The notes under the pieces: generated by a model
The model's database searches: none
The model's input: only the letters and a program-made list of their open reading frames with translations
Told to the model about the DNA's origin: nothing
DNA from: Thermoanaerobaculia bacterium
GTDB lineage: Bacteria; Acidobacteriota; Thermoanaerobaculia; Multivoradales; Multivoraceae
NCBI GenBank assembly: GCA_963664405.1
Contig: OY761158.1
Location: 1,568,001-1,632,000, forward strand
Length of the DNA stretch: 64,000 nucleotides
Direction of reading: 5' to 3'
In this document: piece by piece, positions 2,117 through 61,471 of the stretch
Layout of the letters: each line of letters opens with the position of its first letter
Position numbering within the stretch: the stretch's first letter is position 1
Translations under genes and position numbers: made by a program

Positions 2117-2157
2117 GCTGCCGGCGATTCTAACCAGCTACGTTAAGCTGACACCCA

Positions 2158-14069: not shown

Positions 14070-14080
14070 CGAACGTCCCC

Positions 14081-14245
14081 CTAGACCAGCGTTTCCAAAG
14101 TTCGTGTACATAGGTCGAGGTCATTCTGTTCGCTGGCCAGGCGCGCCGACGCAGGCATATTGGGCAATATGTCGAGGAGGCGAAACGACGCCAGCGGACA
14201 GAAGGGGCCGAGATATGTGCGCGAACTTTGGAAACGCTGGTCTAG
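14081..14245. mobile_element. CTAG-bounded palindromic MITE-like element, copy 1 (165 bp)
   Basis: 24-bp perfect terminal inverted repeat CTAGACCAGCGTTTCCAAAGTTCG; near-identical copies at 41741, 46485 and 58599. Confidence 0.9.
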
Positions 14246-21303: not shown

Positions 21304-21356
21304 CCATCATCGCCATTGTCATTGCCATCATCGCCATTGTCATTGCCATCATCGCC
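21304..21356 (-). repeat. 2.5 x 21-bp tandem repeat in an orphan Gly/Asp-rich C-terminal tail
   Basis: CCATCATCGCCATTGTCATTG repeated; minus strand reads GDDGNDNGDDGNDNGDDGGDGEGDSGDW...PDW* (stop 21237-21239). Confidence 0.7.
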
Positions 21357-21367
21357 GTCGTTGGGGT

Positions 21368-27680: not shown

Positions 27681-27792
27681 CGCGAGAAGCCCGCCTGTGG
27701 TGCAGAGAGCCTGGGGCGGATGGTCTTCTAGGGCGACCGTGGACGACACCACCACTTCGAAACGTACGCAAAGCGCGCTATCCTGATTGCCA

Positions 27793-29856: not shown

Positions 29857-29872
29857 TATAAGCGTCGCTACC

Positions 29873-33479: not shown

Positions 33480-33881
33480 CTAGCGGGGCCTTATCTCGAC
33501 GAACCCTGCTGCGGCGAAATCGCCGTCGTAGGCGAGAGCCTCGGTCAATCGCAGACCCTCCATCAGGGCAAAGCTCGTCGCATCGACGAACGAGTACTCT
33601 CTTTCGTCGTGATGCAGCAGCCAACGCAGACCTCGTGCCTCCTGGTCAGGGGTGACCACGTCGACGCGGATTCTAGGCGAGCTCTCGAGCGAGTCGAGGA
33701 AAGCAACAGCAGAGCGATGATCTGCCTTCCTTCGCAGGTACGTCCAGGTCTCGCCACGAACGTGGTTGCTGGTGACGAAGCCCGAGCGTTCTCTCTGGCG
33801 GAGGATTGCAACAGCCTCTTGGTGGTGCCGGTCCCGCCGATTCCGAAGAGCCACGAAGAACGACGTGTCGATGAAGATCAC
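33480..33881 (-). CDS. vapC: VapC/PIN-domain toxin
   Basis: IFIDTSFF, V..ET, YSFVDATSFALM, YDGDF...GF. Confidence 0.9.
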   Translation of the reverse strand: MIFIDTSFFVALRNRRDRHHQEAVAILRQRERSGFVTSNHVRGETWTYLRRKADHRSAVAFLDSLESSPRIRVDVVTPDQEARGLRWLLHHDEREYSFVDATSFALMEGLRLTEALAYDGDFAAAGFVEIRPR

Positions 33882-34038: not shown

Positions 34039-36033
34039 CTACTCACCACCTCTGGAGGGAACCGCGTAGGCGATGAGCTCGGCCTTCTCGCGAACTCCCC
34101 CGCCGGAGATGACGATGTACTGTCGCCCCTTGTAGAGGTATGTCATCGGGGCGCTGTGCAGACTGCGGTCGACCTCTACCTCGGCCAGTAGCTTGCCTGT
34201 GACCTTGTCATAGGCGTGAAGAAAAGCGCCGCCCGGGACTCCGTCGGCGGGCCTCTTGCCGAGCTCGTCGAGCTTGGAGGCAAAGGTGATCAGCAGAGTC
34301 TTGGTGGTCAGCAGGCCGCCCTCGGTGACCGCGGCTGAAGACTGACTGCCTAGCGGACCCAGGTCGAGATGCTTGATCGCCGGGTGTCCGGTCGGACCCT
34401 CACCCAGAGGCGTCTGCCAGATCAGATCTCCGGTCTTGAGATCGATCGCCGAGATACGCTTGTAGGGCGGTTTGACCAGAGGCAGTCCCTGCGGACCTTC
34501 GAGCGGAACCCGGTCGAGCACATACTTCCAATCCGACCGCGCGGGATCGGGCTGGGTCAAAGCCAGCGCCGAAGGCCGGGTCATCGACTGCACGTAGAGG
34601 TAGCCGGTCTCGGGATCCGCGGAGCCACCCGGATGACTGGCACCCCCGCCGGCGCCGGGCACGAAGATCGTCCCCCTCTTCTCCCCTCCGCTCAGGATCA
34701 GCGGCGGGAACATCCCTCCGTACTCGTACTGTTCGAGAATCTCGAGGGCTTCCTGCCTCAGCTCAGGAGTGAAGTCGATGAGGTCGTCCTCGGTCAATCC
34801 CTGGCGGTCGAAGGGCGGCGGCTTGGTCGGAAAGGGCTGCGTGCGAGCCAGCTTCTCGCCTGGAACCGTAGTGTGCCAGTTGACCGGACGCTCTTCGATC
34901 GGCCACAGAGGCTCCCCCGTGGCTCGATCGAAGACATAAGTGAAGGCCGTCTTCGATACCTGCGCCACCGCCTTGACCAGCCGGCCATCGACAACGACGT
35001 CGAGCAGGATCGGAGCCGACGCGATGTCGTAGTCCCAGATTCCGTGGTGCACGGTCTGAAAGTGCCAGACGCGCTCCCCGGTCTCCACGTCGACACAGAC
35101 CAGGCTCTCGGCGTAGACGTTGTCACCATGGCGCTGGCCGCCGTAGTAGTCGTTGGTCGGAGTGCTGGTACCGAAGTAGACGTAGCCCAGCTCTTCATCG
35201 CCACTCAGCGCAGCCCACACATTGGTGTTGCCCGTCAGCTTCCAGGAATCGTTCTCCCAGGTCTCGACGAAGTCCTCTCCCTCCTGGGGGATGGTGTGGA
35301 AGCGCCATCTGAGCTTACCGGTGCGCACATCGTAGGCGCGCACATGACCAGGCGGGTTGCGGTTACGTAGAGGGAAGTCCCAGATTCTCGAGCCGACGAC
35401 GTAGGTATCACCGACCACGATCCCCGGCTGACCGTGGCTGATGCTACGAATAGTGGTGCCCTCGCGCCCCAGATCGCGCGATAGATCGACGATGCCATCC
35501 TCACCGAAAGCCGGATCGGGTCGTCCGGTCTGGGGATCGATCGACACCAGCTGCCTGCCAATGCTGGCGAGGAAAATGCGCTCGATTCCACCGGCCTGGC
35601 CGGCCTTGCCGTCGGTCCAATATTCGAGTCCACGGGTGTAGACGTTGGTCTGCGTAGGCCTACCGATCGCGTAGCTCTTCGGGTCGTAGACCCAGAGCTC
35701 CTCGCCGGTTGCCGCATCGAGAGCCGCAACCTGGCTGAGCTCGGTGGGCACGTAGATGCGGCCCCCGACCATCAGAGGGGTGGCACGCCAGGGTCGCCGC
35801 TCATAGGGAGACACATGGTCGATGCGCTTGTCGGCGGACTCCCAGCGCCACGCCACCTCGAGCCGTGAGAAGTTCTCTGCGTCGATCTGGCTCAGCGGCG
35901 AATAGCGCGCAGAGCTCTTGTCGCGACCATGGTGACGCCACTCGACATCGGGCTCGGCGCCGAAGCAGACAGCGGGTACACAGAGACCTAACGCCAAGAC
36001 AAAGAATCGCGTCCAAAATCTGCACTTCTCCAC
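34039..36033 (-). CDS. PQQ-dependent dehydrogenase, paralogue C
   Basis: RYSPLSQIDAEN, ATPLMVGG, NVWA...DEELG, WHFQTVHHGIWDYD, TQPFPTKPPPFDRQG, PMTY..KGRQYIV. Confidence 0.9.
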   Translation of the reverse strand: MEKCRFWTRFFVLALGLCVPAVCFGAEPDVEWRHHGRDKSSARYSPLSQIDAENFSRLEVAWRWESADKRIDHVSPYERRPWRATPLMVGGRIYVPTELSQVAALDAATGEELWVYDPKSYAIGRPTQTNVYTRGLEYWTDGKAGQAGGIERIFLASIGRQLVSIDPQTGRPDPAFGEDGIVDLSRDLGREGTTIRSISHGQPGIVVGDTYVVGSRIWDFPLRNRNPPGHVRAYDVRTGKLRWRFHTIPQEGEDFVETWENDSWKLTGNTNVWAALSGDEELGYVYFGTSTPTNDYYGGQRHGDNVYAESLVCVDVETGERVWHFQTVHHGIWDYDIASAPILLDVVVDGRLVKAVAQVSKTAFTYVFDRATGEPLWPIEERPVNWHTTVPGEKLARTQPFPTKPPPFDRQGLTEDDLIDFTPELRQEALEILEQYEYGGMFPPLILSGGEKRGTIFVPGAGGGASHPGGSADPETGYLYVQSMTRPSALALTQPDPARSDWKYVLDRVPLEGPQGLPLVKPPYKRISAIDLKTGDLIWQTPLGEGPTGHPAIKHLDLGPLGSQSSAAVTEGGLLTTKTLLITFASKLDELGKRPADGVPGGAFLHAYDKVTGKLLAEVEVDRSLHSAPMTYLYKGRQYIVISGGGVREKAELIAYAVPSRGGE

Positions 36034-37374: not shown

Positions 37375-37668
37375 ATGGCACACGCCAAGGCGACCTTCAC
37401 GCTGGATCGAGCAACTGTCGATCGACTTCGCCGCACTGCCGAGAGGCTTGGTCGACCCAAGAGTGAAGTCGTTCGCCTCGCGATTCACGACTACAGCGAC
37501 CGCGTTGGCCGCCTGAGCGAGCGCGAGAGGCTACAGAAGCTACGCGCCATAGATAGACTGGTAGCCCGGATCCCATCCCGACCCCAGGCTGACGTTGACG
37601 CCGAGATCGCAGTGATCCGCAAAGCTCGTCGAAGCGGCGGTCGGAAGGGCCCGAGCGAGGCCCGATGA
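37375..37668 (+). CDS. vapB: Ribbon-helix-helix (CopG-like) antitoxin
   Basis: KATFTLD....RLRR.A...G.PKSEVVRLAI; ATGA overlap with the PIN gene. Confidence 0.8.
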   Translation: MAHAKATFTLDRATVDRLRRTAERLGRPKSEVVRLAIHDYSDRVGRLSERERLQKLRAIDRLVARIPSRPQADVDAEIAVIRKARRSGGRKGPSEAR

Positions 37669-38048
37669 TCGTCCTCGACACCTCGGTGTTGATCGACGCT
37701 CTGACCGGCCCCTGCCGGGCGACTCCCTATCTACGGGCTGCCTTCGCCGCCGGCGAGCGCATTGTCCTCCCCTCTCTCGTTCTCTACGAATGGCTGCGCG
37801 GGCCACGCCATGCCGAAGAGCTCGAGGCGCAGGAAGAGCTCTTCCCTCGCAGCGAGGGTCTCGCGTTCGGAAGCGAAGAAGCTGCGCTGGCTGCCGAGCT
37901 CTATTCAACCGTCAAACGCCCACGCGGTCGTGAGATCGATTTGGCGATCGCCGCCACGACGATTCGCAACGTCGCGCAACTGTGGACCGCCAACCTGGCG
38001 GACTTTCGCGACATTCCCGGACTCGATCTCTACACGCCTACCCACTGA
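37665..38048 (+). CDS. vapC: VapC/PIN-domain toxin
   Basis: IVLDTSVLID, LYEW..G, IDLAIAA, LWT.N..DF..IPGL. Confidence 0.9.
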   Translation: MIVLDTSVLIDALTGPCRATPYLRAAFAAGERIVLPSLVLYEWLRGPRHAEELEAQEELFPRSEGLAFGSEEAALAAELYSTVKRPRGREIDLAIAATTIRNVAQLWTANLADFRDIPGLDLYTPTH

Positions 38049-38092: not shown

Positions 38093-39499
38093 CTAGCGCT
38101 CTCGGAGTGAGTACAGTCGAGTCTTGGTCCGCATCAGAAGGCGATCACCCACCAAAGCCGGCGAGGCCAGCACCATCTCGTCGAGCGGGTTGGCATGCAG
38201 CTGCTCCATCTCGTCTCCGGTGCCGAAGACGAAGGTCGTACCTTCCTCGTCGGTCGCGAAGATCCTGCCGCGGTAGGCCCACGGTGAGGCGGTAAAGGCT
38301 CGAGCCGAGTCTTGGATGCGCGCTTTGAAGACCTGCTCTCCGGTAGTAGCGTCATAGCGGGCGAAGAAACCCCGATCGTAGACCACCCATAATGAGCCCC
38401 GATAGGCCACCGGAGTCGGAAGATAGGTACCGGCAGCGGGGTCGTACCAACGAACCGACTCACTACTGCGCGCACCCTCGGGCAGCGTCAGATCGCCGGA
38501 AGCGCCGGACTCGATCGAAGTGATCGGCCGGAAGCTGTCACCATGAACCCCCGAGGTCACGAAGAGCTTCCCTTGGTAGGCAAATGGGGTCGGCACCGGA
38601 AACCGCGACTGATTGGACATTCGCCACAGCTCTCGGCCGCTGGTGTCGTAGCTCAAGACCGTGCTCGGACCCAAGGCGATGATCTCGGTACGGTCCGCGG
38701 TCCGCCAAACGAAGGGCGTGGTCCACCCGGTCTTGCTTCCCTGGGCACCCGGCATGGTGTCGCGGGCGGTCCGCCACCGCTCACGGCCATCCGCTTTAGC
38801 GAACGCCGCGATGAACTGATGCTCCTGATTGTCATTGACGATCACGACCTCGTCGTCGGTGAGCGCCGGCGAGCCTCCGGTGCCGAAGTCGAGAAAGATC
38901 TGAAAAGAGTCGAGCTCTCTGTGCCAACGCAGCTCGCCGGCGAGAGAGACGGCCCACAGACCCAGATTGGCGACGTAGACGAAGATCGTCTCACCGTCGG
39001 TGACCGGTGTTTCCGAGGCGAACGAGTTCTTGGCGTGGCGACCGCCCGGGGGCGGGCCGCGAAAGAGCGTGTGGCGCCAGAGCTCTTGACCGCCTTCGAG
39101 GGCATAGGCGATCAGAAGGTACTCGAGCTCGACCTCCCGGGGAAACTCGATGTAGCGCTCGTTGTGCTTCTCGATGACCTCGGCGCCCGGTAGGCCCTGC
39201 TCTCTCAGCTCGGCGATGTAGTCGTTGCTGAAGTCGGTGCCCATCTCGGGCGGCTTAGCCGCGGTCGACCCGGTGGCCGTAGTCACCCATACCCTGCCAT
39301 CGGCAACAATAGGCGAAGACCAGCCCGCGCCGGGAACCTCGACGACCCATTCCACGTTCTCCGTCGTGGACCAGTGCAGTGGGAGCCGCTCGTTGTCGGA
39401 TACCGGAACCCCTCCGGGACCCCGGAAGCCGGGCCAGGGTGGCTCGGAAGCCGCGGCCACCAGCGGCAGCGCCAAGAAGAGAGCCGGCGTGGCTCTCAT
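38093..39499 (-). CDS. PQQ-like beta-propeller repeat protein (BamB-like)
   Basis: WPGFRGP, W..EVPGAGWSSPIV, ASETPVTDG, ASPAL...LLMRT..RLY. Confidence 0.85.
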   Translation of the reverse strand: MRATPALFLALPLVAAASEPPWPGFRGPGGVPVSDNERLPLHWSTTENVEWVVEVPGAGWSSPIVADGRVWVTTATGSTAAKPPEMGTDFSNDYIAELREQGLPGAEVIEKHNERYIEFPREVELEYLLIAYALEGGQELWRHTLFRGPPPGGRHAKNSFASETPVTDGETIFVYVANLGLWAVSLAGELRWHRELDSFQIFLDFGTGGSPALTDDEVVIVNDNQEHQFIAAFAKADGRERWRTARDTMPGAQGSKTGWTTPFVWRTADRTEIIALGPSTVLSYDTSGRELWRMSNQSRFPVPTPFAYQGKLFVTSGVHGDSFRPITSIESGASGDLTLPEGARSSESVRWYDPAAGTYLPTPVAYRGSLWVVYDRGFFARYDATTGEQVFKARIQDSARAFTASPWAYRGRIFATDEEGTTFVFGTGDEMEQLHANPLDEMVLASPALVGDRLLMRTKTRLYSLRER

Positions 39500-39507
39500 C
39501 CAGGAGG

Positions 39508-40338
39508 TCACGCGACGTCTCGAAAGAAGACCCGAATCCCTGCCTCGTCGACCCAGGAATTCCCGGCCTTGCCCCGCACGAGGCTCGTGCCCAAGTCGCC
39601 GACGGCCGCCTCCAAGAGCTCCCGACTCCGCCCCACGACATCGAAGGCGGCAACCCCGTCGCCACGACCATTCTCGTCGTCGACGAAGCGAATCACGCCG
39701 CGTTTCTTACCGCGAGCACCCGCGCCAGGAACCGAAGCATCGAGATCGATGTACCACGCGGCCCGATCATCCGGCGTCTGCCCCTCGGCCGCCGGCGCAC
39801 CCAGAAGCTCACTCCAGCGCGCAGCCATTGCCGCCCGGTCGGACGACTGCAGCTCCACCCCACAGATCTGAGACAAGAACGAAGAGTCGTGGTCCTGCCA
39901 TCCCGGCCCCGCCCAGGTCCACGCGTCCGTCGGCCGCGCCTCGTCGACCGAAAGGATGGCGCCGCCACAATCCCGCGGATGGACATGAAGCCCTTCCGTC
40001 GTCTCACCCGAGCTTCCCGCGCCCTTGGCGTTCCAGACGATCCGCGCACCGACTTTTTCGATCCGCGATCTTGCAGCGTCCAGGTCAGGGACCTGCAGAA
40101 TCACCATGTAGCCGCCGTCGCCGCCACGTCGTTCGAGATAGCGCCCAGCTGTCGTGTTCTCCTGCACCGGAGAAACCACCTCGAGAAAAGTATCGCCGAT
40201 CGCCGCGACCCAATTGTCGAGCCCGAACTTGATGATGCCGGGATCGTGGTACCCGTAATCGATGCCGAGCAACTTGGCGAGGCGCCCGGTGGTGGCCTCG
40301 AGGTCTTCGGCAACAAGAGCTACCTGCCGTAATCGCAT
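39508..40338 (-). CDS. VOC/glyoxalase-like protein
   Basis: MRLRQVALVA.DL, FGLDN...IGDTFLEVVSP, AGRYLERRGGDGGYMVILQ, HPRDCGGAILS. Confidence 0.8.
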   Translation of the reverse strand: MRLRQVALVAEDLEATTGRLAKLLGIDYGYHDPGIIKFGLDNWVAAIGDTFLEVVSPVQENTTAGRYLERRGGDGGYMVILQVPDLDAARSRIEKVGARIVWNAKGAGSSGETTEGLHVHPRDCGGAILSVDEARPTDAWTWAGPGWQDHDSSFLSQICGVELQSSDRAAMAARWSELLGAPAAEGQTPDDRAAWYIDLDASVPGAGARGKKRGVIRFVDDENGRGDGVAAFDVVGRSRELLEAAVGDLGTSLVRGKAGNSWVDEAGIRVFFRDVA

Positions 40339-41740: not shown

Positions 41741-41906
41741 CTAGACCAGCGTTTCCAAAGTTCGTGCTGCATAGCTCGAGCTCATTCTGTTCGCTGGCTA
41801 GGCGCGCCGACGCAGGCATATTGGGCAATATGTCGAGGAGGCGCAACGCCGGCAGCGGGCAGAAGGGGCCGAGATATGTGCGCGAACTTTGGAAACGCTG
41901 GTCTAG
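41741..41906. mobile_element. CTAG-bounded palindromic MITE-like element, copy 2 (166 bp)
   Basis: Same TIR and core as copy 1; the right CTAG provides the stop codon of ORF 41903-42109. Confidence 0.9.
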
Positions 41907-42109
41907 AGCTCGAAGGGCTCACCCCGAGTCGTTCCGCGAGCTCGAAGCGCCTCGTAGGTACCCTGTCCCGCGGCACGAGACGCAGCGAGCACCTGCTCCA
42001 AGGATTCGCTTTGCTGGCGAAGGTCGCGTAGACGGGCCACGTCGACTTCGTCAGTGGGCACATCGCTGTCGAGGTCGAGGGGCTCAGAGGCTACGGTGAA
42101 TCTCTTCAT
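41903..42109 (-). CDS. Small protein coupled to the upstream nucleotidyltransferase
   Basis: 68 aa, overlaps the 3' end of 42084-42614; ends GEPFEL*. Confidence 0.55.
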   Translation of the reverse strand: MKRFTVASEPLDLDSDVPTDEVDVARLRDLRQQSESLEQVLAASRAAGQGTYEALRARGTTRGEPFEL

Positions 42110-42614
42110 AGTCTTTGTCTAGTCCATGCCGGTGGAAGTATTCTCGCACCTCGTCACGATCCACGCTCTCGATACGAAGCAGCACACGAATGTCGGCGAG
42201 ATCCTGCAACCGCCGCGTCCGGTCGTTCCTATAGGCCGTGACCTTCATCGCTATGAGGTGCTCTGGCTTCGGCACCAAGGCTTTGCAGCCCGGAAAGACC
42301 AGACGTTCGCGGGCGTCGGCAAAGAGCTTGGCTTCGGTCTCGCCGCGAACGTAGATCAAGTCTACGCGGCCCCAGGCCGGGTCCGCGTGGAGGTGGTTCG
42401 AATAACCGGAGGAGCGATGCAGTGTCTCGTAGCCGAGAGACTCGAGATAGGCGACCACGGCATCCTGTTGGTCGAAGGGGACGATCAAGTCGAGATCGAA
42501 GGTCGTACGACCGCCCCCGTAGCTGTTCAATCCCCATCCACCGGCGACCGCACACCGGGAGCTCTGATGGTTGAGAAAGCTAGCGACAGCCTCGTGGACG
42601 CGAGTGTATTCCAT
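42084..42614 (-). CDS. Nucleotidyltransferase-fold protein (AbiEii/DUF6036-like)
   Basis: AVAGGWGL..YG..RTT.DLDL, RVDLI, PEHLIAMK..A......R.QDLADI. Confidence 0.8.
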   Translation of the reverse strand: MEYTRVHEAVASFLNHQSSRCAVAGGWGLNSYGGGRTTFDLDLIVPFDQQDAVVAYLESLGYETLHRSSGYSNHLHADPAWGRVDLIYVRGETEAKLFADARERLVFPGCKALVPKPEHLIAMKVTAYRNDRTRRLQDLADIRVLLRIESVDRDEVREYFHRHGLDKDYEEIHRSL

Positions 42615-45763: not shown

Positions 45764-46111
45764 CTACAGACCCAGATGGAGGCGAAGGGCGTCTTCCAGG
45801 TCGGACATGAGCGACGGCGGAAGCTGGCCAACTCGTCCGCCCACCCTTTCGATCGCTATCGAGCGTACCTGCTCCGCTTGCGCCTTGGAGTCGCGGGACA
45901 ATCCGCATTCCGCAGCGGGCAGCCTCACCTGGAAGGGATATATCCGGGTCACGTTCGAGGTTACCGGCACCACAGTGATGATGCCGCGACCGAGTCGAGA
46001 GGCCGTGGCGTTGGCGCCATCGTTACTAACGATCACCGCCGGCCGGCTCTTCTTCACCTCGGACCCTCGCGCTGGAGCGAGATCGACAACACGAAGCTCA
46101 CCGCGGAGCAT
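45764..46111 (-). CDS. mazF: MazF/PemK endoribonuclease toxin
   Basis: MLRGE...VDL.PARGSE..K.RPAVIVSND, VVPVTSN, SKAQAEQVRSI. Confidence 0.92.
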   Translation of the reverse strand: MLRGELRVVDLAPARGSEVKKSRPAVIVSNDGANATASRLGRGIITVVPVTSNVTRIYPFQVRLPAAECGLSRDSKAQAEQVRSIAIERVGGRVGQLPPSLMSDLEDALRLHLGL

Positions 46112-46344
46112 CACCGCTCCTCGACCTGCGGATCGAGCCCATCGCCACTCACCGCCTCCCACAGACTCGCATCGCCGGCTTCCCACTCTTCCCATGCCTG
46201 CGCGTAGGCGGGACCGAGCTCGGTTGCACGCAACAGGCGAACCGCCTGTTGAAGGACAGCAGACCGAGAACGGGCCCCTACGTTGCGAGCATAGTCGTCG
46301 AGAAACTCGATGTCCTCCTCGGGTAGACTCACACTCAACTTCAT
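46111..46344 (-). CDS. mazE: RHH antitoxin (MazE-like)
   Basis: MKLSVSL..EDI.FLD.YA......SRSAVLQ.AVR.LR...L..AY..AW.EW; TGATG overlap with mazF. Confidence 0.85.
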   Translation of the reverse strand: MKLSVSLPEEDIEFLDDYARNVGARSRSAVLQQAVRLLRATELGPAYAQAWEEWEAGDASLWEAVSGDGLDPQVEER

Positions 46345-46351
46345 ACCTTTA

Positions 46352-46369
46352 TGCTACCACTAGGTAGCA
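46352..46369. promoter_or_regulatory. mazEF operator palindrome overlapping the -10 box
   Basis: TGCTACC-ACTA-GGTAGCA; minus-strand TAGCAT lies 6 nt before the ATG. Confidence 0.65.
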
Positions 46370-46460
46370 ACAAGATAGCAACACGCCACGGTCCAGCTGT
46401 TCTTCTGACTCCATGGTGTAGGCTCTGCGGCCTATGACTCGAAAAAGGGGAGAGACCGTG

Positions 46461-48161
46461 ATGGCAATGCTCCGCGTCCGCGCCCTAGACCAGCGTTTCC
46501 AAAGTTCGTGCTGCATAGCTCGAGGTCATTCTGTTCGCTGGCCAGGCGCGCCGACGCAGGCATATTGGGCAATATGTCGAGGAGGCGAAACGCCGCCAGC
46601 GGGCAGAAGGGGCCGAGATATGTGCGCGAACTTTGGAAGCGCTGGTCTAGTACTCGTTCTGGGGTTGATCTCGGCGCTCGGCTGTCAACCTGCGGAACAA
46701 CCCACGGAGACGGGCGCCCCTCCCGCGGCGGCGGTGGCGGCCGCGCCGAATATCATCGTCATCCTCGCCGACGATCTCGGCTATGGCGACATCGGAGCCT
46801 ACGGTTCCCAGATCCCGACCCCCAACATCGACCAGCTGGCGCGGGACGGCGTTCGGCTGACCTCCGGCCATGTTTCGGCAGCGGTATGCAGCCCGACACG
46901 CGCCGGCCTCCACACCGGCCGCTACCAGAATCGCTTCGGTTGGGAGTACAACCCCTTCTACTTCAGCGGCGCCGACAGAGGTCCCGATGCCGACCTCGGT
47001 CTTCCTCTCGACCAGGCCACACTCGCCAACCTCTTTCAGGATGCCGGCTACACCACCGGCCTGATCGGCAAGTGGCATCTCGGTGTGGCTGAGCAGTACC
47101 ACCCGATGAACCGTGGCTTCGACGAGTTTTACGGAATCCTGGGAGGCGGTACCAGCTACATCGACTCCCGCCTTCCCGGCACTCACGAGTGGCCCGAGGA
47201 GGGTGCCCCGACCACCCGCAGCGGAGACTCGCGCGTCATCCGCGACGGCTTCGAGGTGATCGAGGTCGAGGAGTACCTGACCGACGTCTTCGCCGAGAAG
47301 GCGGTCGACTTCATCGATCGCCATGCGGACGAGCGCTTCCTACTGATGCTGACGCCGAATACCCCACACACGCCCCTTCAGGCGACGGACGAGTACATGG
47401 AGCGGGTGCAGCACATCGAGGGAGAGGGCGCACGCCTCTACGCCGCGATGGTGGTCTCACTCGACGATTACGTCGGTGATGTCGTCGCCGCCCTACGCAA
47501 GCACGACCTTGAGCGCGACACGATCGTCGTCTTTCTCTCCGACAACGGCTGCATCAACTACATGAGCGAGCCGATCTGCACCAACGCCCCCCTGGCTGGC
47601 AACAAGCGCTTCCACCTCGAAGGGGGCCATCGCGTTCCTTTCATCGTCAAATGGCCGGCAGGCCTTCCTCAGGGCGAGGTCTACGATGAGCACGCGATCG
47701 CTCTCGACCTCTACGCGACCTTCGCAGCTGCCAGCGGTCTCGAAGCCAGCTCTCCCGACAGCGTGAACCTGCTTCCCCATCTACGTGGTGAGGCCTCCGA
47801 ACCGCCACACGAGTTCCTCTACTGGCGCGCGGCACCCAACATCGCGATCCTGTGGGGGAAGTGGAAGATGTGGAAGGTCAACAACACCGATCTCGAGATC
47901 CCTCCGGGGCCGCCGGGCCAACAAGTACCGCTGCAGGAATGGCCACCCCACTCTTCGCCCCTAGGCCAGGCCACGGTTCTCTATGACCTTTCCACCGACA
48001 TCGGCGAGACCACGAATGTCGCCGACCAGCATCCCGAGATCGTCGAGCGTCTGGAGAGCGAGCTCGAAGCGTGGGAGGAGACGCTCTCCGAGCCACTCTG
48101 GGTCAACCGCCGCTCGACCTTGCATGAACTGCACGGTCAGACTGTGCACCTCTTCTTCTAA
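46461..48161 (+). CDS. Lipoprotein Cys-type sulfatase with a 54-aa element-derived insertion in its signal peptide
   Basis: PNIIVILADDLGYGD, CSPTRAGL.TGRY, GKWHLG, SDNG; in-frame element at 46485-46650. Confidence 0.9.
   Translation: MAMLRVRALDQRFQSSCCIARGHSVRWPGAPTQAYWAICRGGETPPAGRRGRDMCANFGSAGLVLVLGLISALGCQPAEQPTETGAPPAAAVAAAPNIIVILADDLGYGDIGAYGSQIPTPNIDQLARDGVRLTSGHVSAAVCSPTRAGLHTGRYQNRFGWEYNPFYFSGADRGPDADLGLPLDQATLANLFQDAGYTTGLIGKWHLGVAEQYHPMNRGFDEFYGILGGGTSYIDSRLPGTHEWPEEGAPTTRSGDSRVIRDGFEVIEVEEYLTDVFAEKAVDFIDRHADERFLLMLTPNTPHTPLQATDEYMERVQHIEGEGARLYAAMVVSLDDYVGDVVAALRKHDLERDTIVVFLSDNGCINYMSEPICTNAPLAGNKRFHLEGGHRVPFIVKWPAGLPQGEVYDEHAIALDLYATFAAASGLEASSPDSVNLLPHLRGEASEPPHEFLYWRAAPNIAILWGKWKMWKVNNTDLEIPPGPPGQQVPLQEWPPHSSPLGQATVLYDLSTDIGETTNVADQHPEIVERLESELEAWEETLSEPLWVNRRSTLHELHGQTVHLFF
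46485..46650. mobile_element. CTAG-bounded palindromic MITE-like element, copy 3 (166 bp), intragenic and in frame
   Basis: Removing 162 bp (element minus one CTAG) restores MAMLRVRALVLVLGLISALGCQP, matching the paralogue MAMRSQLRRALVLCLGLLSIIGCQS. Confidence 0.92.
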
Positions 48162-48165
48162 GGGG

Positions 48166-49707
48166 ATGGCGATGAGATCTCAGTTGCGCCGAGCTCTTGT
48201 GCTCTGTCTGGGACTACTCTCGATCATCGGCTGCCAGTCTCCCCAGGAGCCGATAGAAACCGGCGCGCCCCCGGCGCTGGGCGCGCCGACCGCCCCCAAT
48301 ATCATCGTCATCGTGGCCGACGACCTCGGCTACGGTGACATCGGCGTCTTCGGATCGGAGACCATCCCGACCCCCCACATCGACGCGCTGGCACGCGACG
48401 GCGTGCAGTTGACCGCGGGCTACGTTTCCGGAGCGGTGTGCAGTCCCACTCGGGCCGGGCTCCACACCGGGCGCTACCAGAACCGCTTCGGCTACGAGTA
48501 CAACCCCACCGCCAACTATGTGAGGGGGGCCGACGCGGAGCTCGGTCTGCCCGAGGATCAGACGACGATCGCCAATCTCTTTCAAGACGCCGGTTACACC
48601 ACCGGTCTCATCGGCAAGTGGCATCTCGGCATCCGCGAGCCCTACCATCCGCTCAACCGCGGCTTCGACGAGTTCTACGGGATTCGGGGCGGCGCCACGA
48701 GCTATATCGACTCACGGCTTCCGGGGGTGCATTCGTTCCCGGCGGAGGGCGCCCCGACCGAGCGTACCGGGTATGAGCGCGCCATCATCGACGGCCGCGA
48801 AGAGGTGGACGTCCCCGAGTACCTGACCGACGTCTTCGCCGAGAAGGCGGTGGACTTCATCGACCGCCACGCGGACGAGCGCTTTCTCTTGATGCTGACG
48901 CCGAACACTCCCCACACGCCGATCCAGGCGACCGACGAGTACGTCGAGCGAGTCAAGCACATCGAAGAAGAGGGCGCGCGCATCTATGCCGCGATGGTCG
49001 TCTCTCTCGACGACTATGTCGGCGACGTCGTCGCCGCCCTGCGCCGGCACGATCTCGAGCGCGACACACTCATCGTCTTTCACTCCGACAACGGCTGCAT
49101 CAACTACATTGGCGAAGTGATCTGCACCAATGCTCCGCTGTCTGGCGGCAAGCGCTACCACCTCGAAGGAGGCATCCGTGTGCCTTTCATCATCAAGTGG
49201 CCCGCGGGTCTGCCGCAGGGCGCGGTCTACGAAGAACCGGTGATCGCTCTCGACACCTACTCGACCGCGGCCGCCGCCGCTGGCCTCGACGCCAGTACTC
49301 CCGACAGCGTCAACCTCCTTCCCTATCTCCGTGGCGAGACCTCCGAAGCACCGCACGAGTTCCTCTACTGGCGCTCCGCTCCCAACCACGCGATCCGTTG
49401 GGGGAAGTGGAAGATGTGGAAGGTCAACAACACCGATCTGGCCTTCGGCGATCCTCCGCCTCCCGGTCGGTTACTGCCCGAAGTGGACTACCCGATCGAG
49501 TCCCCCCATGGGCAGACGACGGTTCTCTACGACCTCTCGGCCGATGTCAGCGAGCAGCAGAATCTCGCCGACCAGCACCCCGAGATCGTCGAGCGCCTGG
49601 AGGCCGAGCTCGAAGCCTGGGCCTCCGAGCTCGCCGAGCCGATGTGGACCAGCCGCCGCGCGACTCTCGACGACCTCCACGGCCAGACCGTTCAGCTCTT
49701 CTTCTAG
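48166..49707 (+). CDS. Lipoprotein Cys-type sulfatase (tandem paralogue)
   Basis: Same motifs; highly similar to 46461-48161 over its length; lipobox-like IIGC. Confidence 0.92.
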   Translation: MAMRSQLRRALVLCLGLLSIIGCQSPQEPIETGAPPALGAPTAPNIIVIVADDLGYGDIGVFGSETIPTPHIDALARDGVQLTAGYVSGAVCSPTRAGLHTGRYQNRFGYEYNPTANYVRGADAELGLPEDQTTIANLFQDAGYTTGLIGKWHLGIREPYHPLNRGFDEFYGIRGGATSYIDSRLPGVHSFPAEGAPTERTGYERAIIDGREEVDVPEYLTDVFAEKAVDFIDRHADERFLLMLTPNTPHTPIQATDEYVERVKHIEEEGARIYAAMVVSLDDYVGDVVAALRRHDLERDTLIVFHSDNGCINYIGEVICTNAPLSGGKRYHLEGGIRVPFIIKWPAGLPQGAVYEEPVIALDTYSTAAAAAGLDASTPDSVNLLPYLRGETSEAPHEFLYWRSAPNHAIRWGKWKMWKVNNTDLAFGDPPPPGRLLPEVDYPIESPHGQTTVLYDLSADVSEQQNLADQHPEIVERLEAELEAWASELAEPMWTSRRATLDDLHGQTVQLFF

Positions 49708-49992: not shown

Positions 49993-50997
49993 GTGGAGCG
50001 AATCTCAGGACTCTCGATCACCTTCTTTGTTGCGGCCTGCGCCGCCCCACCGGAAGCCGACCTCGACGACATACTAGGGGCGACGCCACCCGACTTGTCG
50101 GCTTACCAGAAATACGAGATCGAGTCCTCAGCCGAGGGCAACCTACAAGTCACTTTCCTCGGCGTCGCCACCCTGCTCTTCGACGACGGAGAGACGGCGA
50201 TCATGACCGACGGCTACTTCACTCGCATCAGCCGCGAGCAGATGGCTCTGGGCGATCCGATCGCGCCGGATCAAGCTTTGGTCGCGGCAGGTTTACAACG
50301 CGTCGGGGTCGATCGACTCGCCGCCGTCATGACGGTGCATTCGCACTTCGATCACTCTCTGGACACCCCGGTCGTCGCGAAGCTCACCGGCGCCACCGTC
50401 GTCGGCTCGCGCTCCACCGCGAACATCGCCCGCGGTTGGGGACTCGACGAGACGCAGATCAAAGAAGTCGTGAACGGGGACTCAATGCGTTTCGGTGACT
50501 TCGAAGTGACCTTCATCCAGTCGAAGCACTACGCGCTCCCCGCAGCCGCTGCCACCTCGATCGGCAAAGAGATCCTCTCGCCCCTGGTGCCGCCACAGCC
50601 GACCACCGCCTATGTCGAAGGCGGCAGTTACTCCATCCTGATCGACCATCCCGTACAGAGCTTTCTGGTGCAGGGCAGCGCGGGGTCCCTGCCGGGCGCC
50701 TTGGACGCCTATTCCGCGGACATAGTCCTGCTCGGCATCGGCGGCCTGGGGCGCATGGAGCGGGACTACAAGGAAGGCTATTGGCGAGACGTGGTCGAGG
50801 CTGTAGATGCGAAGGTCGTAATTCCGATTCACTTCGACGACTTCACTCGCTCCGCCACTGCACCCCTCGGTGCGATGCCCGATGTGCCGCAGGCTTTCGA
50901 CTTTCTGATCGACAAGGCGGGTGAGGCCAATGTGGAGTTTGCGCTGCTGCCCTACTACCTACCCGCGGCGCCCCGTCCGTCCCAGACCGCCCCTTGA
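49993..50997 (+). CDS. MBL-fold metallo-hydrolase (probable lipoprotein)
   Basis: VTFLGVATLL, TDGYFTR, HSHFDHSLD, IPIHFDDF. Confidence 0.85.
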   Translation: MERISGLSITFFVAACAAPPEADLDDILGATPPDLSAYQKYEIESSAEGNLQVTFLGVATLLFDDGETAIMTDGYFTRISREQMALGDPIAPDQALVAAGLQRVGVDRLAAVMTVHSHFDHSLDTPVVAKLTGATVVGSRSTANIARGWGLDETQIKEVVNGDSMRFGDFEVTFIQSKHYALPAAAATSIGKEILSPLVPPQPTTAYVEGGSYSILIDHPVQSFLVQGSAGSLPGALDAYSADIVLLGIGGLGRMERDYKEGYWRDVVEAVDAKVVIPIHFDDFTRSATAPLGAMPDVPQAFDFLIDKAGEANVEFALLPYYLPAAPRPSQTAP

Positions 50998-51353
50998 TAG
51001 GCGTCCTGGATCGCCCGGTCTCGAGTCAGCAGCGGCACATCGTTGATCACCGCATGGCTGACGATGATGCGGTCGAATGGATCGCGAGTCCAATTCTGAT
51101 CACGAGCGGTGGTCGCCACCTGCTCGAAGGGCAAGTCGCATACGACCAGGCCCAAGGGCGCCCGCAGAGTAGCTAGAACTTCTTCAGCCGGCTTCCCGGT
51201 CCGTCCGATCTCATACAGATACTGAAGCTCCAGCCCCACCATCGGAGAGATCAACAGTTCATTGCCTTCGATCAGAGAACGGGCAAGGGCCGGTATCAGA
51301 TCGACGCGGCCGGCGTAGAGCCAGGCGACAACGTGGGTGTCGAGATAGATCAA
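50955..51353 (-). CDS. vapC: VapC/PIN-domain toxin
   Basis: IYLDTHVVAW, ISPMVGLEL, RDPFDRIIV, LLTRD; TTG start overlaps the antitoxin stop. Confidence 0.88.
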   Translation of the reverse strand: MIYLDTHVVAWLYAGRVDLIPALARSLIEGNELLISPMVGLELQYLYEIGRTGKPAEEVLATLRAPLGLVVCDLPFEQVATTARDQNWTRDPFDRIIVSHAVINDVPLLTRDRAIQDAYQGAVWDGRGAAGR

Positions 51354-51571
51354 GGCTTCCAGGCTTCCGACCAATCGATGTCGAGAAGATCTTCGGGCTC
51401 AGCGAGCAGATAGTCACGAGGCTCGAGCCGGTCGAGCTTGGCACGCCGCTCAAGCGGTACGACTCGTAGGATCTGACCGCGACGCTCCACCTCGAGTGGA
51501 ATGCCGGTCTCGAGAACTTGGTCGAGGAGGCGGTAGATGTCCTGTCGAAGGCTCGATGCTGTGACTGTCAT
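51350..51571 (-). CDS. Phd/YefM-like antitoxin
   Basis: TASSLRQDIYRLLDQVLETG.P.EVERRG; upstream ACGTACGT palindromes at about 51615-51648 (probable operator). Confidence 0.8.
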   Translation of the reverse strand: MTVTASSLRQDIYRLLDQVLETGIPLEVERRGQILRVVPLERRAKLDRLEPRDYLLAEPEDLLDIDWSEAWKP

Positions 51572-52506: not shown

Positions 52507-52686
52507 CTAGTGTCCTGTATCAGTAGTTCGTCACACAACTCGCTGGCCCTTTTGGGCGCTGCCGTCGTTGGCTGGGCGCCCCCGCTCTCCTCGCAATATT
52601 GCCCAATATACCTTCGTCGTAGCGCCTTGGCAGCACCCAAAATGACTGCGCGATTTATGCAACGAACCACTGATACAGGACACTAG
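52507..52686 (-). mobile_element. Related CTAG-bounded palindromic element, subfamily 2 (180 bp)
   Basis: TIR CTAGTGTCCTGTATCAGT / ACTGATACAGGACACTAG; minus-strand core CGACGAAGGTATATTGGGCAATATTGCGAGGAG matches the core of copies 1-3. Confidence 0.8.
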
Positions 52687-55771: not shown

Positions 55772-56011
55772 CTACTCGGCATTCCCCCCGCTGGCCTCCC
55801 ACTCGTTCTCGATCGGGGAGACGACGTCGCCGTGAATCACGAGCTCCTTACGGTGGAGGCCGAAGAGGGTCTCTGGCTTCTCCAGATACGCGACCAACCG
55901 ACTCACCGGACGACCGTTCTTCGTGATCACGATGGACTCGTTGGTCTCTGCGACTTCGTCCATCAAGGCGAGACACTTGGATTTGAACTCGGACGCTTTG
56001 ATCTTCTTCAT
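55772..56011 (-). CDS. Phd/YefM antitoxin
   Basis: IKASEFKSKCLALMDEV.ET.E.IVITKNGRPVSRLV. Confidence 0.9.
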   Translation of the reverse strand: MKKIKASEFKSKCLALMDEVAETNESIVITKNGRPVSRLVAYLEKPETLFGLHRKELVIHGDVVSPIENEWEASGGNAE

Positions 56012-57943: not shown

Positions 57944-58213
57944 GTGAAACCAACGAAAGAACGTCCCCAGAGACGCGAGTACCGAGCGAAGGTCTTCCGT
58001 AACGGGCGCAGCCAGGCGATACGCCTCCCCAAGGAGCTCCGATTCGATGAGCAAGAGAAGGAGGTTCGTGTGTGGCGGGAGCACGGACGCCTGGTAGTCG
58101 AATCGATCGACGAGTGGCCGGAGGACTTCTGGCGACTCTTCGGAAGCGTTCCTGATCTCGAGCTCCCCGAGCGAACGCCCCTCGCCGAGGCACGCGACCG
58201 CTTCAATCGGTGA
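57944..58213 (+). CDS. vapB: AbrB/MazE-fold antitoxin VapB
   Basis: AKVFRNGRSQAIRLPKELRF. Confidence 0.92.
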   Translation: MKPTKERPQRREYRAKVFRNGRSQAIRLPKELRFDEQEKEVRVWREHGRLVVESIDEWPEDFWRLFGSVPDLELPERTPLAEARDRFNR

Positions 58214-58602
58214 GGTACCTCCTCGACACCGATACGGTGAGCTTCATCCTGCGCGGAGAGGGGAGGGTCGAAGACCACTTTCTTCGCCTCCGCCCGTCGG
58301 ACATCTGCACCAGTCCGATCGTCGTAGGAGAGATTGAGCTCGGCCTCGAACGGAGAAAGAACCCGAGGCTTCGACTGCTCGCTGAACGTCTCTTCGAGAT
58401 CTTGTCCGTCGCGCCTTACGACAGGGAGGCTGGCCAGCACTACGGCCGATTGGCAGCTTCCCTCCTGGCAACAGGAACCCCGATCGGGGTCGAGGACACG
58501 ATGGTCGCGGCCCACGCCCTGTCGTTGGGCCTGACTCTGGTCACTCACAACACCAGGCACTTTGAGCGAGTACCGGGGCTCAGGGTCGAGGACTGGTACT
58601 AG
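58210..58602 (+). CDS. vapC: VapC/PIN-domain toxin
   Basis: YLLDTDTVS, GEIELG, GTPIG..DTMVAAHA, LVTHNTRHF.RVPGL.VEDW. Confidence 0.92.
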   Translation: MRYLLDTDTVSFILRGEGRVEDHFLRLRPSDICTSPIVVGEIELGLERRKNPRLRLLAERLFEILSVAPYDREAGQHYGRLAASLLATGTPIGVEDTMVAAHALSLGLTLVTHNTRHFERVPGLRVEDWY

Positions 58603-58763
58603 ACCAGCGTTTCCGAAGTTCGTGTACAGAGCTCGAGGTCATTCTGTTCGCTGGCAAGGCGCGCCGACGCAGGCATAGCAGGGACTATGTCGAGGAGGCG
58701 CAACGCCGCCAGCGGGCAGAAGGGGCCGAGAACTGTGCGCGAACTTCGGAAACGCTGGTCTAG
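58599..58763. mobile_element. CTAG-bounded palindromic MITE-like element, copy 4 (165 bp, divergent)
   Basis: The left CTAG contains the vapC stop; carries paired compensatory substitutions relative to copies 1-3. Confidence 0.9.
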
Positions 58764-59503: not shown

Positions 59504-59920
59504 ATGAGCGGCGGAGTCAGCGACACCAAAACCATCGCGGCGGCGCTCTCGGATGAGCTCGCTTCGGTGGGCGACGTGGTCGCAGCGTATCTCTTCGGGA
59601 GTGTCGCTCGAGGTCGGCACCACCGCGCGAGCGATGTCGATGTCGCTCTCCTCCTGGCGGAAGATCCGCCTGGTACCCTGGCAGGGCTAAGGCTCGACCT
59701 GGCGGCGAAGCTCGGCGACCGTCTCGGCCTGCCGGTGCAGGTCGTGCTGCTGAATCAGGCACCGGCGGACCTCGCTCACCGCGTTCTACGCGACGGCCAG
59801 CTCCTGATCGACCGCGATCCCGGCAGGCGTATTCGTTTCGAGGTTCGCTCCCGCAACGAGTACTTCGACCTCCATCTGATTCGGCAGCGCTATAGGCACG
59901 GCAGCAGGAGAGCGTCGTGA
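59504..59920 (+). CDS. mntA: MNT antitoxin (MntA-like adenylyltransferase)
   Basis: AYLFGSVARG.....SDVDVALL, V.LN.AP..LAHRVLRDG.LL. Confidence 0.85.
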   Translation: MSGGVSDTKTIAAALSDELASVGDVVAAYLFGSVARGRHHRASDVDVALLLAEDPPGTLAGLRLDLAAKLGDRLGLPVQVVLLNQAPADLAHRVLRDGQLLIDRDPGRRIRFEVRSRNEYFDLHLIRQRYRHGSRRAS

Positions 59921-60345
59921 CCGATGGGGAGCTGGTTGCGAAGAAGCTCGCCGAGATCGAGACCCGCGTTCGCGAGCTCGAACGGCTGGCCCAACCCGAG
60001 CTGATGGCGACAGACCTGAAGGAGCAGCGTTTCATCCTGATGACCCTGCAGCTGGCGATCCAGGCTGCTCTCGACGTGGCCTCGCACATCGTCTCCGACG
60101 AGCAGCTCGGCGAGCCGGAGCGCAACCGAGACTTGTTCGGTCTCCTCACCGCAGCAGGCTGGCTGACCGAGGAGCTGGGGGGCCGCCTGCAGCAGATGGC
60201 GGGTTTTCGCAACGTCCTCGTTCACGAGTACATGCGAACCGATCTCGCGGTTGTGCGCGACGTTCTGGAGAACCGACTCGAAGATCTACTGAGCTTCAGT
60301 GCGGCAGTGAGACAGCGGCTTCCTCCGTCGAGCAAGCGCGGTTAG
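59917..60345 (+). CDS. hepT: HEPN/DUF86 RNase toxin (HepT-like)
   Basis: LQLAIQAALDVASHIV, MAGFRNVLVHEY (RxxxxH motif). Confidence 0.88.
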   Translation: MTDGELVAKKLAEIETRVRELERLAQPELMATDLKEQRFILMTLQLAIQAALDVASHIVSDEQLGEPERNRDLFGLLTAAGWLTEELGGRLQQMAGFRNVLVHEYMRTDLAVVRDVLENRLEDLLSFSAAVRQRLPPSSKRG

Positions 60346-60664
60346 CTCAGACAGTAGTTGCGGCTCTGTCGCCTGCCACGCAGACCTCGTCACTCGCGGC
60401 TCGATCCGGCCTTCCCCAGTACATCCGCTTCGAGCACCCGGGCACCCCGTAAAATGCCTCCCATCGAGTAATTGCCCTCGTGACAGGCGTACTCGTAAAA
60501 CCCGCTCCGTGGTAGAGCGCAAAACGTACTCGCCGGTCCACGGCGCCGTCCAAGACGTCTGGTCTTCGACCGTCCCTGTATTCTTCTCGCATGTTAGATT
60601 GTTCAGAATTTCATCCTGCAGCACAAAGTGTAAATACGGTCGTAAATCTCTCGTGAAGGGATCC

Positions 60665-61471
60665 ATGCAGCTCGTCCTCGCCGCGCTCGCCGCCGGCCTA
60701 GGGGTAAGCACCGCCTTCGGTCAGCAAGGAGCTGCCGACGGCGAATGGCGGCACCACGGCGGCGGCAACGGCTCTTCGAGGTATTCCGGGCTGAGCCAGA
60801 TCGACGCCGCGAACTTCTCGCAGCTCGAAGTAGCCTGGGGTTGGGAGTCCGCCGATCTGCGAATCGAGGAGAGCTCTCCCTACAAGCGGCAACCCTTCCG
60901 GGCCACACCTCTGATGATCGGTGGCCGCCTCTACGTGCAGTCGCGAACGGCGCCAGGAGCGATGGCGCTGACGCAACCGGACCCCGCGCGGTCCGATTGG
61001 AAGTATGTGAATAGCGGCGTACGGGCCGCGGGCCCCCGGGGGCTGCCCCTCGTCAAGCCCCCCTATCGGCGGATCACGGCGGTCGACCTGAAGATGGGCG
61101 ATCTCACCTGGCAGGCTCCGTTGGGGCAGGGCCCGACCGGGCACCCGGCGATCAAGCATCTCGAGCTCGGGCCCCTGGGCGGCCGTGGCTCCAGCGGCGT
61201 CGACGAGGGCGGGCTGCTCATCACCAGGACACTGTTGATCACCTTCGCCGCCAAACTCGACGAGCTCGGCAATCGCCTCCGCGATGGAATGGGGGGCGCC
61301 TATCTTCAGGCCTACGACAAGGCCACGGGCAAGTTGTTGGCCGAGGTCGAGGTCGACCGCAGCCTGCACAGCTCACCGATGACCTATCTCCACCAAGGGC
61401 GCCAGTACATTGTCGTTGCCGGCGGCGGCGTAACGGAGAAAGCGGAGCTTGTCGCGTTCGCTGTGCCGTAG
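60665..61471 (+). pseudogene. PQQ-dehydrogenase paralogue with in-frame internal deletion (open 268-aa ORF)
   Basis: N-terminus to ATPLMIGGRLYV is joined directly to QSRTAPGAMALTQPDPARSDWKYV; paralogue C has 386 extra codons between the equivalent points. Confidence 0.85.

Follow-up and report, generated by a model that had tools for sequence, protein, structure and literature searches.

A 64,000-nt stretch of the genome of a Thermoanaerobaculia bacterium (contig OY761158.1, positions 1,568,001 to 1,632,000; hereafter the window) contains a sulfatase gene with a palindromic mobile element in its leader. Positioned after the first codons and ahead of the hydrophobic core, within what is probably a lipoprotein signal peptide, the element leaves the reading frame open. 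It is a miniature transposon with inverted repeats (a MITE) of the IS630 kind, and members of its family were found in the corresponding position in at least six further exported proteins. We favour, with a probability of about 0.6, the explanation that the MITE entered a cleaved leader as a near-neutral insertion and left the mature sulfatase unchanged.

The inserted unit comprises 166 bases (window 46485-46650) and has CTAG at each edge (46485-46488 and 46647-46650). Its inverted-repeat arms (46485-46511 and 46624-46650; 27 nt) are 93% complementary, the unit being a near-perfect palindrome. The spacing from CTAG to CTAG is 162 bp, and the 54 added codons (46488-46649), which are placed after codon 9 of the sulfatase, contain no stop. 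When folded as RNA by prediction, the whole unit gives one hairpin at -113.8 kcal/mol; shuffled sequences averaged -60.5 (z = -14.3), and none of 200 was as stable. No open reading frame (ORF) with a transposase domain is present inside the 160-bp element, the whole of which is one hairpin. Eight matches to the 21-nt terminal core are present in the window and make up four inverted pairs with at most one mismatch, while 0.01 occurrences were expected; the sulfatase insert is thus not a product of chance. A scan of positions 46300-46800 against Rfam with E values up to 1 revealed no known RNA family. Of the two hits seen there, one was to a plant miRNA precursor (23 bits, the gathering score being 200) and the other to a viral hairpin; both were dismissed as hairpin look-alikes. 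The scan of positions 46250-46800 for promoters and terminators gave none of either.

The interrupted gene is otherwise intact. The ORF 46434..48161, with ATG 46461 as the likely start, reads through the element and has no other stop or frameshift. The C/S-x-P-x-R motif of type I (formylglycine) sulfatases is present as CSPTR and is aligned with that of the tandem paralogue. The leader of the host protein has Arg residues before the insert; the 12-residue hydrophobic core (mean hydropathy 2.68) is followed by G-C, and the residues A and L at -3/-2 are off the textbook lipobox. An earlier reading of this DNA, made from the letters only (the sequence-only reading), had described an in-frame palindromic insertion of 162 bp, or 54 codons without a stop. 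The repeat arms and the ORF read-through bear this out. The in-frame ATG that it had placed near the 3' end of the element is present (46620-46622), and its view that the insert parts the n-region from the h-region of a probable lipoprotein signal peptide is supported. The same reading had called the paralogue uninterrupted, in agreement with a BLASTP alignment at 75% identity that begins exactly after the insert, at residue 63 of the sulfatase and residue 11 of the paralogue.

The relatives of the sulfatase provide an empty site at the protein level. Among 6428 relatives scored in the protein database, the top one (P0001; 510 aa, 89% identity) starts with MLRVRT and continues straight into LVLVPGLISALGC without any insert. 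In all of the 120 best relatives of these 6428, the 54-residue insert remained unaligned (query coverage 82-93%). The named relatives come from Bryobacterales and Holophagales and are about 60% identical. Since both the orthologue P0001 and the tandem paralogue are without the 54 residues, the insertion is, as judged by this comparison, the derived state.

Including the sulfatase copy, four close copies are present in the window (Table 1). They can be aligned end to end in the same orientation, are 91-97% identical, have unrelated flanks, and carry CTAG on both sides. The sulfatase copy is 97% identical to the copies at 14084 and 41744 and carries private substitutions. The internal ATG of the sulfatase copy is also found in the copies 14084 and 41744 and in L014 (one of the loci found in other genomes, see below); it is missing from 58602 and from the external copies L003 and L013. 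In addition, the left end of copy 14084 (window 14067-14111, minus strand) offers an ATG in frame with the neighbouring DUF748-like gene, 14 codons ahead of the likely start (MKKVL...), which mirrors the internal right-end ATG of the sulfatase copy. A nucleotide profile built from the element copies revealed a variant of 174 bp at 52510-52683, located between the stop of an HpcH-type aldolase gene and the start of a 2-hydroxyacid dehydrogenase gene. This variant may respond to another IS630-type transposase.

A scan of species-representative genomes gave at least 14 loci (L001-L014). Six complete units of 160-173 bp are among the loci listed (L002, L003, L006, L010, L013, and L014), and they belong to one Vicinamibacteria genome and another Acidobacteriota genome. 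The unit at L001 is cut off by the contig end. The single matches L005, L008, and L011 have no TA flanks and we take them as chance or decayed sites, our own estimate being about four chance matches for 19 fixed bases in the collection. A second, partial copy (profile positions 27-133, without terminal repeats) was seen at positions 2387-2493 of L003, about 230 bp from the complete one.

The remaining four loci (L004, L007, L009, and L012), all from one alphaproteobacterial genome, connect the element to a transposase. At L009, 21 of 21 nt of the element end are identical to one end of a 1281-bp element (2001-3281) that has CTAG on both sides and an imperfect inverted repeat at its other end. 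The 392-aa ORF of this insertion sequence (IS) passes the NCBIfam IS630 family transposase model NF033545 with 205 bits (cutoff 100) and also matches Pfam DDE_3, HTH_32, and HTH_29. The contigs at L004, L007, and L012 end 1.1-1.3 kb inside the same IS, which makes three contig-breaking copies among the four seen; repeated ISs often break assemblies. An annotated IS630-family transposase 70% identical to that of L009 is encoded on a Mesorhizobium plasmid, with a similar end and CTAG flanks. A blastn search of the plasmid collection with the element itself gave no match. Both ends of the window element resemble one single end of the IS. The element is short, has terminal inverted repeats and no transposase gene, and is present in several copies at unrelated sites, as MITEs are. 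Because its ends are common to an IS that encodes an IS630-family transposase, the window element is, on this sequence evidence, a MITE derived from, or mobilised by, an IS630-family element. The sharing of this end between an alphaproteobacterial IS and Acidobacteriota MITEs hints at an exchange of transposon lineages across phyla. The window ORF 21608-22423 (HTH_32) was considered as a partner transposase and rejected, as it has no similarity to the L009 transposase. It is part of a pair of overlapping ORFs (21349-22423, minus strand) that combine HTH_32 with an integrase-like C-terminal part and look like a frameshifted remnant of an IS481/IS3-type transposase.

The link to IS630 also bears on the size of the target duplication. 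The sequence-only reading had taken the flanks as direct evidence of a 4-bp CTAG target duplication, a claim that could not be upheld. The CTAG...CTAG flanks of the window copies fit a TA duplication as well as a CTAG duplication; an element that starts with G, ends with C, and enters the TA of a CTAG produces the same sequence as a CTAG duplication would. According to the available text of the ISY100 paper (PMC2170065), IS630-family elements insert at TA and duplicate it, and a preference of IS630 for the TA within 5'-CTAG-3' is given in the title of Tenzen and Ohtsubo 1991, cited there. The L013 copy is flanked by CTA on the left and TAC on the right; its flanking 4-mers are unequal and the TA is equal, which fits the duplication of TA only. 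The right flank of L002 is mutated (TCG) and is uninformative on this point. With the IS630 family link and the L013 flanks favouring TA, the duplicated sequence is very probably TA inside a CTAG target. An IS5-type MITE duplicating the whole CTAG would explain the presence of CTAG on both flanks of all four close window copies, and a 4-nt duplication of CTAG or YTAA is described in the available text on the IS5-derived MITEPsy1 of Pseudomonas syringae (PMC3189936), which made the 4-bp proposal a sensible one. We consider it highly improbable here: the IS that has an identical end encodes a transposase of the IS630 family, the L013 flanks speak against a 4-bp duplication, and no IS5-type transposase with these ends was seen.

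Eleven complete units at the DNA level are among the loci listed, five in the window and six external, and their places relative to genes were compared. In two of the 11, the gene upstream uses the TAG within the left CTAG as its stop codon, namely the gene for VapC (window 58599-58605) and that for a 2-hydroxyacid dehydrogenase (L014 1998-2004); the element is therefore attached at the end of the coding region and the protein is unchanged. The units 41744, 52510, and 14084 lie within about 20 nt of a stop or start. Three of the 11 interrupt genes for exported proteins within the first codons: those of the window sulfatase, the sulfatase of L013, and the TolB of L002 (TIGR02800, 2.4e-91). The L013 sulfatase has six codons ahead of the element, the frame of which is that of the window case, and a hydrophobic core with a lipobox-like LSAC follows at once. 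In TolB, three codons are followed by the element in the other open frame and then by the hydrophobic core.

A search of the protein database with two element-encoded peptides gave 12 distinct proteins. In five of these, which represent four genes (P0126, P0127, P0128, P0130, and P0131), the element is placed between the start and the hydrophobic core. P0126 and P0128 are DUF3604 paralogues (59% identical) struck at different points and in different frames, P0127 is an amidohydrolase, and P0130/P0131 are two variants of one TPR protein; P0126, P0127, and P0128 are probably from one genome. Six other proteins run into the element at their C-terminal end (P0122, P0123, P0124, P0125, P0129, and P0132), and P0121 has no known domain. 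None of the 12 has a read-through copy in the middle of a domain or of the protein, though the peptide searches would have reported one.

Taken together, an in-frame element separates the start or n-region from the hydrophobic core in seven independent cases and in two reading frames: the sulfatases of the window and of L013, the L002 TolB, the DUF3604 proteins P0126 and P0128, the amidohydrolase P0127, and the TPR protein P0130/P0131. In all seven, 0-18 residues separate the element from the 12-residue stretch of highest hydrophobicity in the N-terminus. In the window frame, three Arg are found among the 15 residues preceding the core, and the other open frame has a strongly basic end with 4-6 Lys/Arg among its final 15 residues; basic residues stay near the core in every case except L013. 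The comparison of P0130 with P0131 showed about 85 identical mature residues and leaders that differ by in-frame indels of 26 and 3 residues and by three substitutions. These indels, the open frames, and the basic ends hint that the leader copies are translated. The element-derived leader of P0130/P0131 evolves much faster than the rest of this protein.

The supply of targets was assessed from the CTAG sites of the window, scored on a hand-curated gene list checked against Pfam. In this 63% GC sequence, 65 CTAG sites are present versus 215 expected from base composition. The free sites are distributed as 24 in the non-coding 19% of the window, seven at stop codons, and 25 inside genes. Six of these 25 fall in the first tenth of the gene and one or two within the first 15 codons (indicative figures, the start codons being approximate). 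The target supply thus favours gene ends, yet it does not predict that all read-through copies stand before a signal-peptide core. The simplest account of the clustering in leaders is survivorship, with insertions into mature domains purged and those into cleaved leaders kept; on this account, the interrupted leaders still function.

Together with the TA, the canonical unit has 162 bases and is free of stops in three of the four readings of an intragenic CTAG insertion (two frames, two orientations). Three frames are open in the intergenic copy 41744 as well as in 46488, L003, and L006. Among 20,000 trials, at least three open frames were obtained in 2.0% of freely shuffled interiors and in 2.7% of palindrome-preserving ones.

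The course of events that we favour would be as follows. An IS630-type transposase acting in trans would have put the MITE into the TA of a CTAG lying across codons 9-10 of the sulfatase, and the TA would have been duplicated. Translation would start at ATG 46461, the ribosome-binding site and the start both lying outside the hairpin, and pass through 54 mostly basic or neutral residues. The precursor would thereby have a leader of 75 residues instead of 21, with the hydrophobic core and the Cys at 46683-46685 untouched. Export and cleavage would then remove the added residues and release an unchanged mature enzyme, and the mRNA hairpin of about 80 bp would perhaps lower or alter expression. 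That the insertion is tolerated is suggested by six further exported proteins in which the family occupies the equivalent position. TolB, normally a single-copy protein, is among them, and this recurrence argues that no buffering paralogue is needed. Long N-terminal extensions of Sec signals function in some autotransporters. The sulfatase gene is probably still usable, with the paralogue alongside.

Several points weigh against this explanation. Because the insertion is young, as indicated by the 97% identity to its siblings, the intact frame says little about selection at the sulfatase, and the adjacent 75%-identical paralogue could buffer a loss of the gene. A hairpin of -114 kcal/mol beginning 24 nt after the start codon could hinder translation or attract RNase III. 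No IS630-family transposase was seen within the 64-kb window, and the autonomous relative at L009 lies in another phylum than the genome of the window. The protein searches detect open read-through copies only, in two query frames and one orientation, and gene callers may have extended some ORFs through elements that are truly in the 5' untranslated region. Furthermore, Arg-rich frames are also expected from GC-rich DNA, which weakens the hint from the basic ends, and P0125 is a disruptive case, in which a more distantly related element cuts the sulfatase short after about 140 residues and leaves a fragment. The numbers of matches should be read with the searches behind them: the 54-residue insert gave five matches against 1.84 billion cluster representatives, where N-terminal inserts in proteins clustered with uninterrupted relatives are invisible, and two word-indexed searches gave three and six matches, which are examples and not counts.

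Some of these points would also fit a knock-down or knock-out, in which the mRNA hairpin or an unusable 75-residue leader silences the sulfatase while the paralogue suffices, the open frame being a by-product of the 162 bp. We hold this to be possible but not likely; the sequence-only reading had already suggested that the element may silence, relocalise, or re-start one of the two sulfatases, with the paralogue buffering the change. The net length is 162 bp in every canonical copy, so that intragenic copies are in frame by construction; the sulfatase copy is young; the paralogue begins 5 nt past the stop, and the window has four sulfatases. The hairpin would be part of the sulfatase mRNA, and the hairpins of Correia elements in Neisseria mRNAs are cut by RNase III. 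However, silencing does not account for the six other exported proteins interrupted at the same place, TolB included, nor for the lack of a read-through copy in mid-domain among the 12 database proteins. The frame was also kept through two indels between P0130 and P0131. In the predicted mRNA fold, the element hairpin is self-contained and ATG 46461 is unpaired in the centroid structure, i.e., neither the native ribosome-binding site nor its ATG is sequestered. A re-start of translation from the ATG of the element, aided by the GAAGGGG upstream and giving a short leader into the original core, is quite improbable in our estimation. The ATG and the purine-rich stretch are suitably spaced, the copies 14084, 41744, and L014 have the same ATG, the opposite end of copy 14084 also offers an ATG that opens into the frame of its neighbour, and the other reading frame of the element has an internal Met, too. 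Nevertheless, the re-start site is inside the right arm of the hairpin, and the leader produced from it would lack any Lys or Arg ahead of the hydrophobic core. As the ATG is missing from L013, itself an in-frame sulfatase case, in addition to 58602 and L003, re-starting is not a general feature of the family.

An artefact of assembly, with a repeat copy misplaced inside the gene, has a negligible probability. Repeats do break or confuse assemblies, and the related IS stands at contig ends in L004, L007, and L012. Meanwhile, the junctions of the sulfatase copy are exact at CTAG, its excision restores a signal peptide matching those of the orthologue and the paralogue, the copy has its private substitutions, and equivalent insertions occur in independent assemblies. 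The near-neutral insertion may also be compared with bolder explanations. In one of them, which we find doubtful, the MITE family is shaped for export signals and rebuilds a working n-region, and the hairpin serves as a regulatory handle for exported enzymes. Its grounds are the net length of 54 codons, the three open frames of four, and the basic leader up to the host core in both forward frames. In the boldest variant, ribosomes would skip the element by hopping between two identical CTA codons, one in front of it and one at its end; the matching codons are the sole basis of this variant.

Among known systems, the enterobacterial IS630 MITEs (ERIC/IRU, i.e., MITEEc1_IS630, and the RU-1 and RU-2 elements of Delihas) are alike in being short, palindromic, non-autonomous, tied to IS630, and found in genes with the frame kept. 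The available text of PMC11602168 lists an ERIC-type unit as an IS630-related MITE. The present family, compared with them by family link alone, differs in being found in Acidobacteriota and in its high GC content. It also recurs at the signal-peptide position, with seven proteins of known families, two frames, and a documented empty site. The autonomous IS630 and ISY100 duplicate TA, as the present element probably does, and IS630 also has the CTAG preference; the transposase of the L009 element, which has the shared end, fits the NCBIfam IS630 model. The window element differs from them in having 160 bp and no transposase ORF. MITEPsy1 is likewise a small MITE with CTAG flanks (PMC3189936, available text), whereas it is derived from IS5 and duplicates 4 nt; the ends of the present family match the IS630 family and one of its copies fits 2 nt only.

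The sequence-only reading had compared the element with the Rickettsia palindromic elements (RPEs), which is apt as an analogy, as both are palindromic and reside recurrently in frame in genes (in the present family, seven read-through cases, all in leaders). In the available text of the review PMC10969869, RPEs are described as repeats of a palindromic type, about 150 bp long, which have repeatedly entered protein-coding genes in frame and are considered compatible with the function of the protein, and in-frame fusions of MITEs are called "not unusual", with RPEs singled out; that text has no occurrence of the word "signal". RPEs have no known transposase partner and sit within the mature proteins of many metabolic genes. 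The present family, in contrast, has an IS630-type end and TA/CTAG flanks, most of its copies are intergenic or at stops, and its read-through copies are confined to the leader. We therefore liken the element to RPEs by description, as a probable analogue and not a member, the Rfam scan having given no match.

The Correia elements of Neisseria are MITEs of about 100-155 bp that duplicate TA, are co-transcribed, form hairpins, and supply promoters or processing sites. They differ from the present family in sequence, to which they are unrelated, and what is known of them mainly concerns regulation in untranslated regions, and not residence in signal peptides. In the open-access literature, we found no family with read-through copies recurring in the leaders of many exported proteins; Delihas 2007 was the sole relevant match. 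In-frame MITEs such as RPE and ERIC are thus known, and the recurrent signal-peptide site is a new, if modest, twist.

Only a small number of bacterial MITEs persist in genes, and most of the known examples are from Rickettsia and enterobacteria. The present family comes from a high-GC, poorly studied phylum, has a traceable IS630-type parent, and has read-through copies clustering in disposable leaders. If this pattern holds genome-wide, it shows where a compact genome can take up selfish DNA and spare the mature protein any cost, and it would also provide a natural series of 54-residue extensions, probing the N-terminal load tolerated by Sec and lipoprotein signals. For annotation, the family matters in that gene callers swallow the element into the protein or mis-set the start.

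Table 1. Positions in the window of the element in the sulfatase leader, its host gene and paralogue, and the other copies.
Feature	Position	Strand	Details
MITE body	46488..46647	+	160 bp (G...C), near-perfect palindrome; extent under the TA-duplication model
Left CTAG	46485..46488		Includes TA 46486-46487 as left copy of the probable target duplication; CTA codes for Leu9
Right CTAG	46647..46650		TA 46648-46649 is the right copy of the probable target duplication
Left terminal inverted repeat	46488..46511	+	First 21 nt identical to one end of the IS630-family IS in L009
Right terminal inverted repeat	46624..46647	-	One mismatch against the left repeat within the 21-nt core
In-frame ATG in the right arm of the element	46620..46622	+	Residue 54; GAAGGGG (46606-46612) is 7 nt upstream
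Interrupted sulfatase	46461..48161	+	566 aa including the insert; Pfam Sulfatase PF00884, 3.2e-59; CSPTR motif intact
Shine-Dalgarno-like GGGGAG	46447..46452	+	8 nt before the native ATG 46461, outside the element hairpin
Hydrophobic core and probable lipobox Cys	46650..46685	+	Directly 3' of the element; Cys is TGT 46683-46685
Uninterrupted tandem paralogue	48166..49707	+	513 aa, 75% identical; starts 5 nt after the stop of the first gene
Second copy of the element	14084..14242	+	159 bp; upstream, by about a dozen nt, of a minus-strand gene start (DUF748-like membrane protein)
Third copy	41744..41903	+	160 bp; CTAG 9 nt past the stop of a CoA-transferase gene
Fourth copy	58602..58760	+	159 bp; TAG of the left CTAG is the stop codon of the VapC (PIN) gene 58210-58602
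Variant copy	52510..52683	-	Related core, different terminal repeats, CTAG flanks; nhmmer E 3.9e-16

Several other features of the window were observed. Genes of the toxin-antitoxin type are dense (33480-33881, 37665-38048, 45764-46344, 50955-51571, 55772-56011, 57944-58602, and 59504-60345); the set includes four PIN/VapC proteins, two Phd/YefM antitoxins, one HepT-like protein, and one AbiEii-like protein (42084-42614). A MazF/PemK gene with a small upstream partner stands directly before the sulfatase. At 14362-15054 (plus strand), two ORFs in the same frame are split by a single TGA (14656-14658). Reading this TGA as selenocysteine gives a 230-residue protein with the motif FGSYT-U-PPF, which matches the NCBIfam deiodinase family protein model at 2.7e-51 (below its cutoff) and Pfam T4_deiodinase, and the locus is a candidate selenoprotein gene. 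A SECIS-like hairpin was not seen in the 60 nt downstream of this TGA, the fold of which is no better than those of shuffled sequences.

The four sulfatase genes of the window start at 31880, 46461, 48166, and 53797. They are accompanied by a PQQ set (27787-31837, 34039-36033, 38093-39511, and 60509-61471) of three full PQQ-dependent dehydrogenases and one PQQ_2 protein; one further ORF, possibly a fragment, matches only the last fifth of the PQQ model. The presence of PQQ dehydrogenases together with four sulfatases suggests a polysaccharide- or alcohol-scavenging lifestyle.

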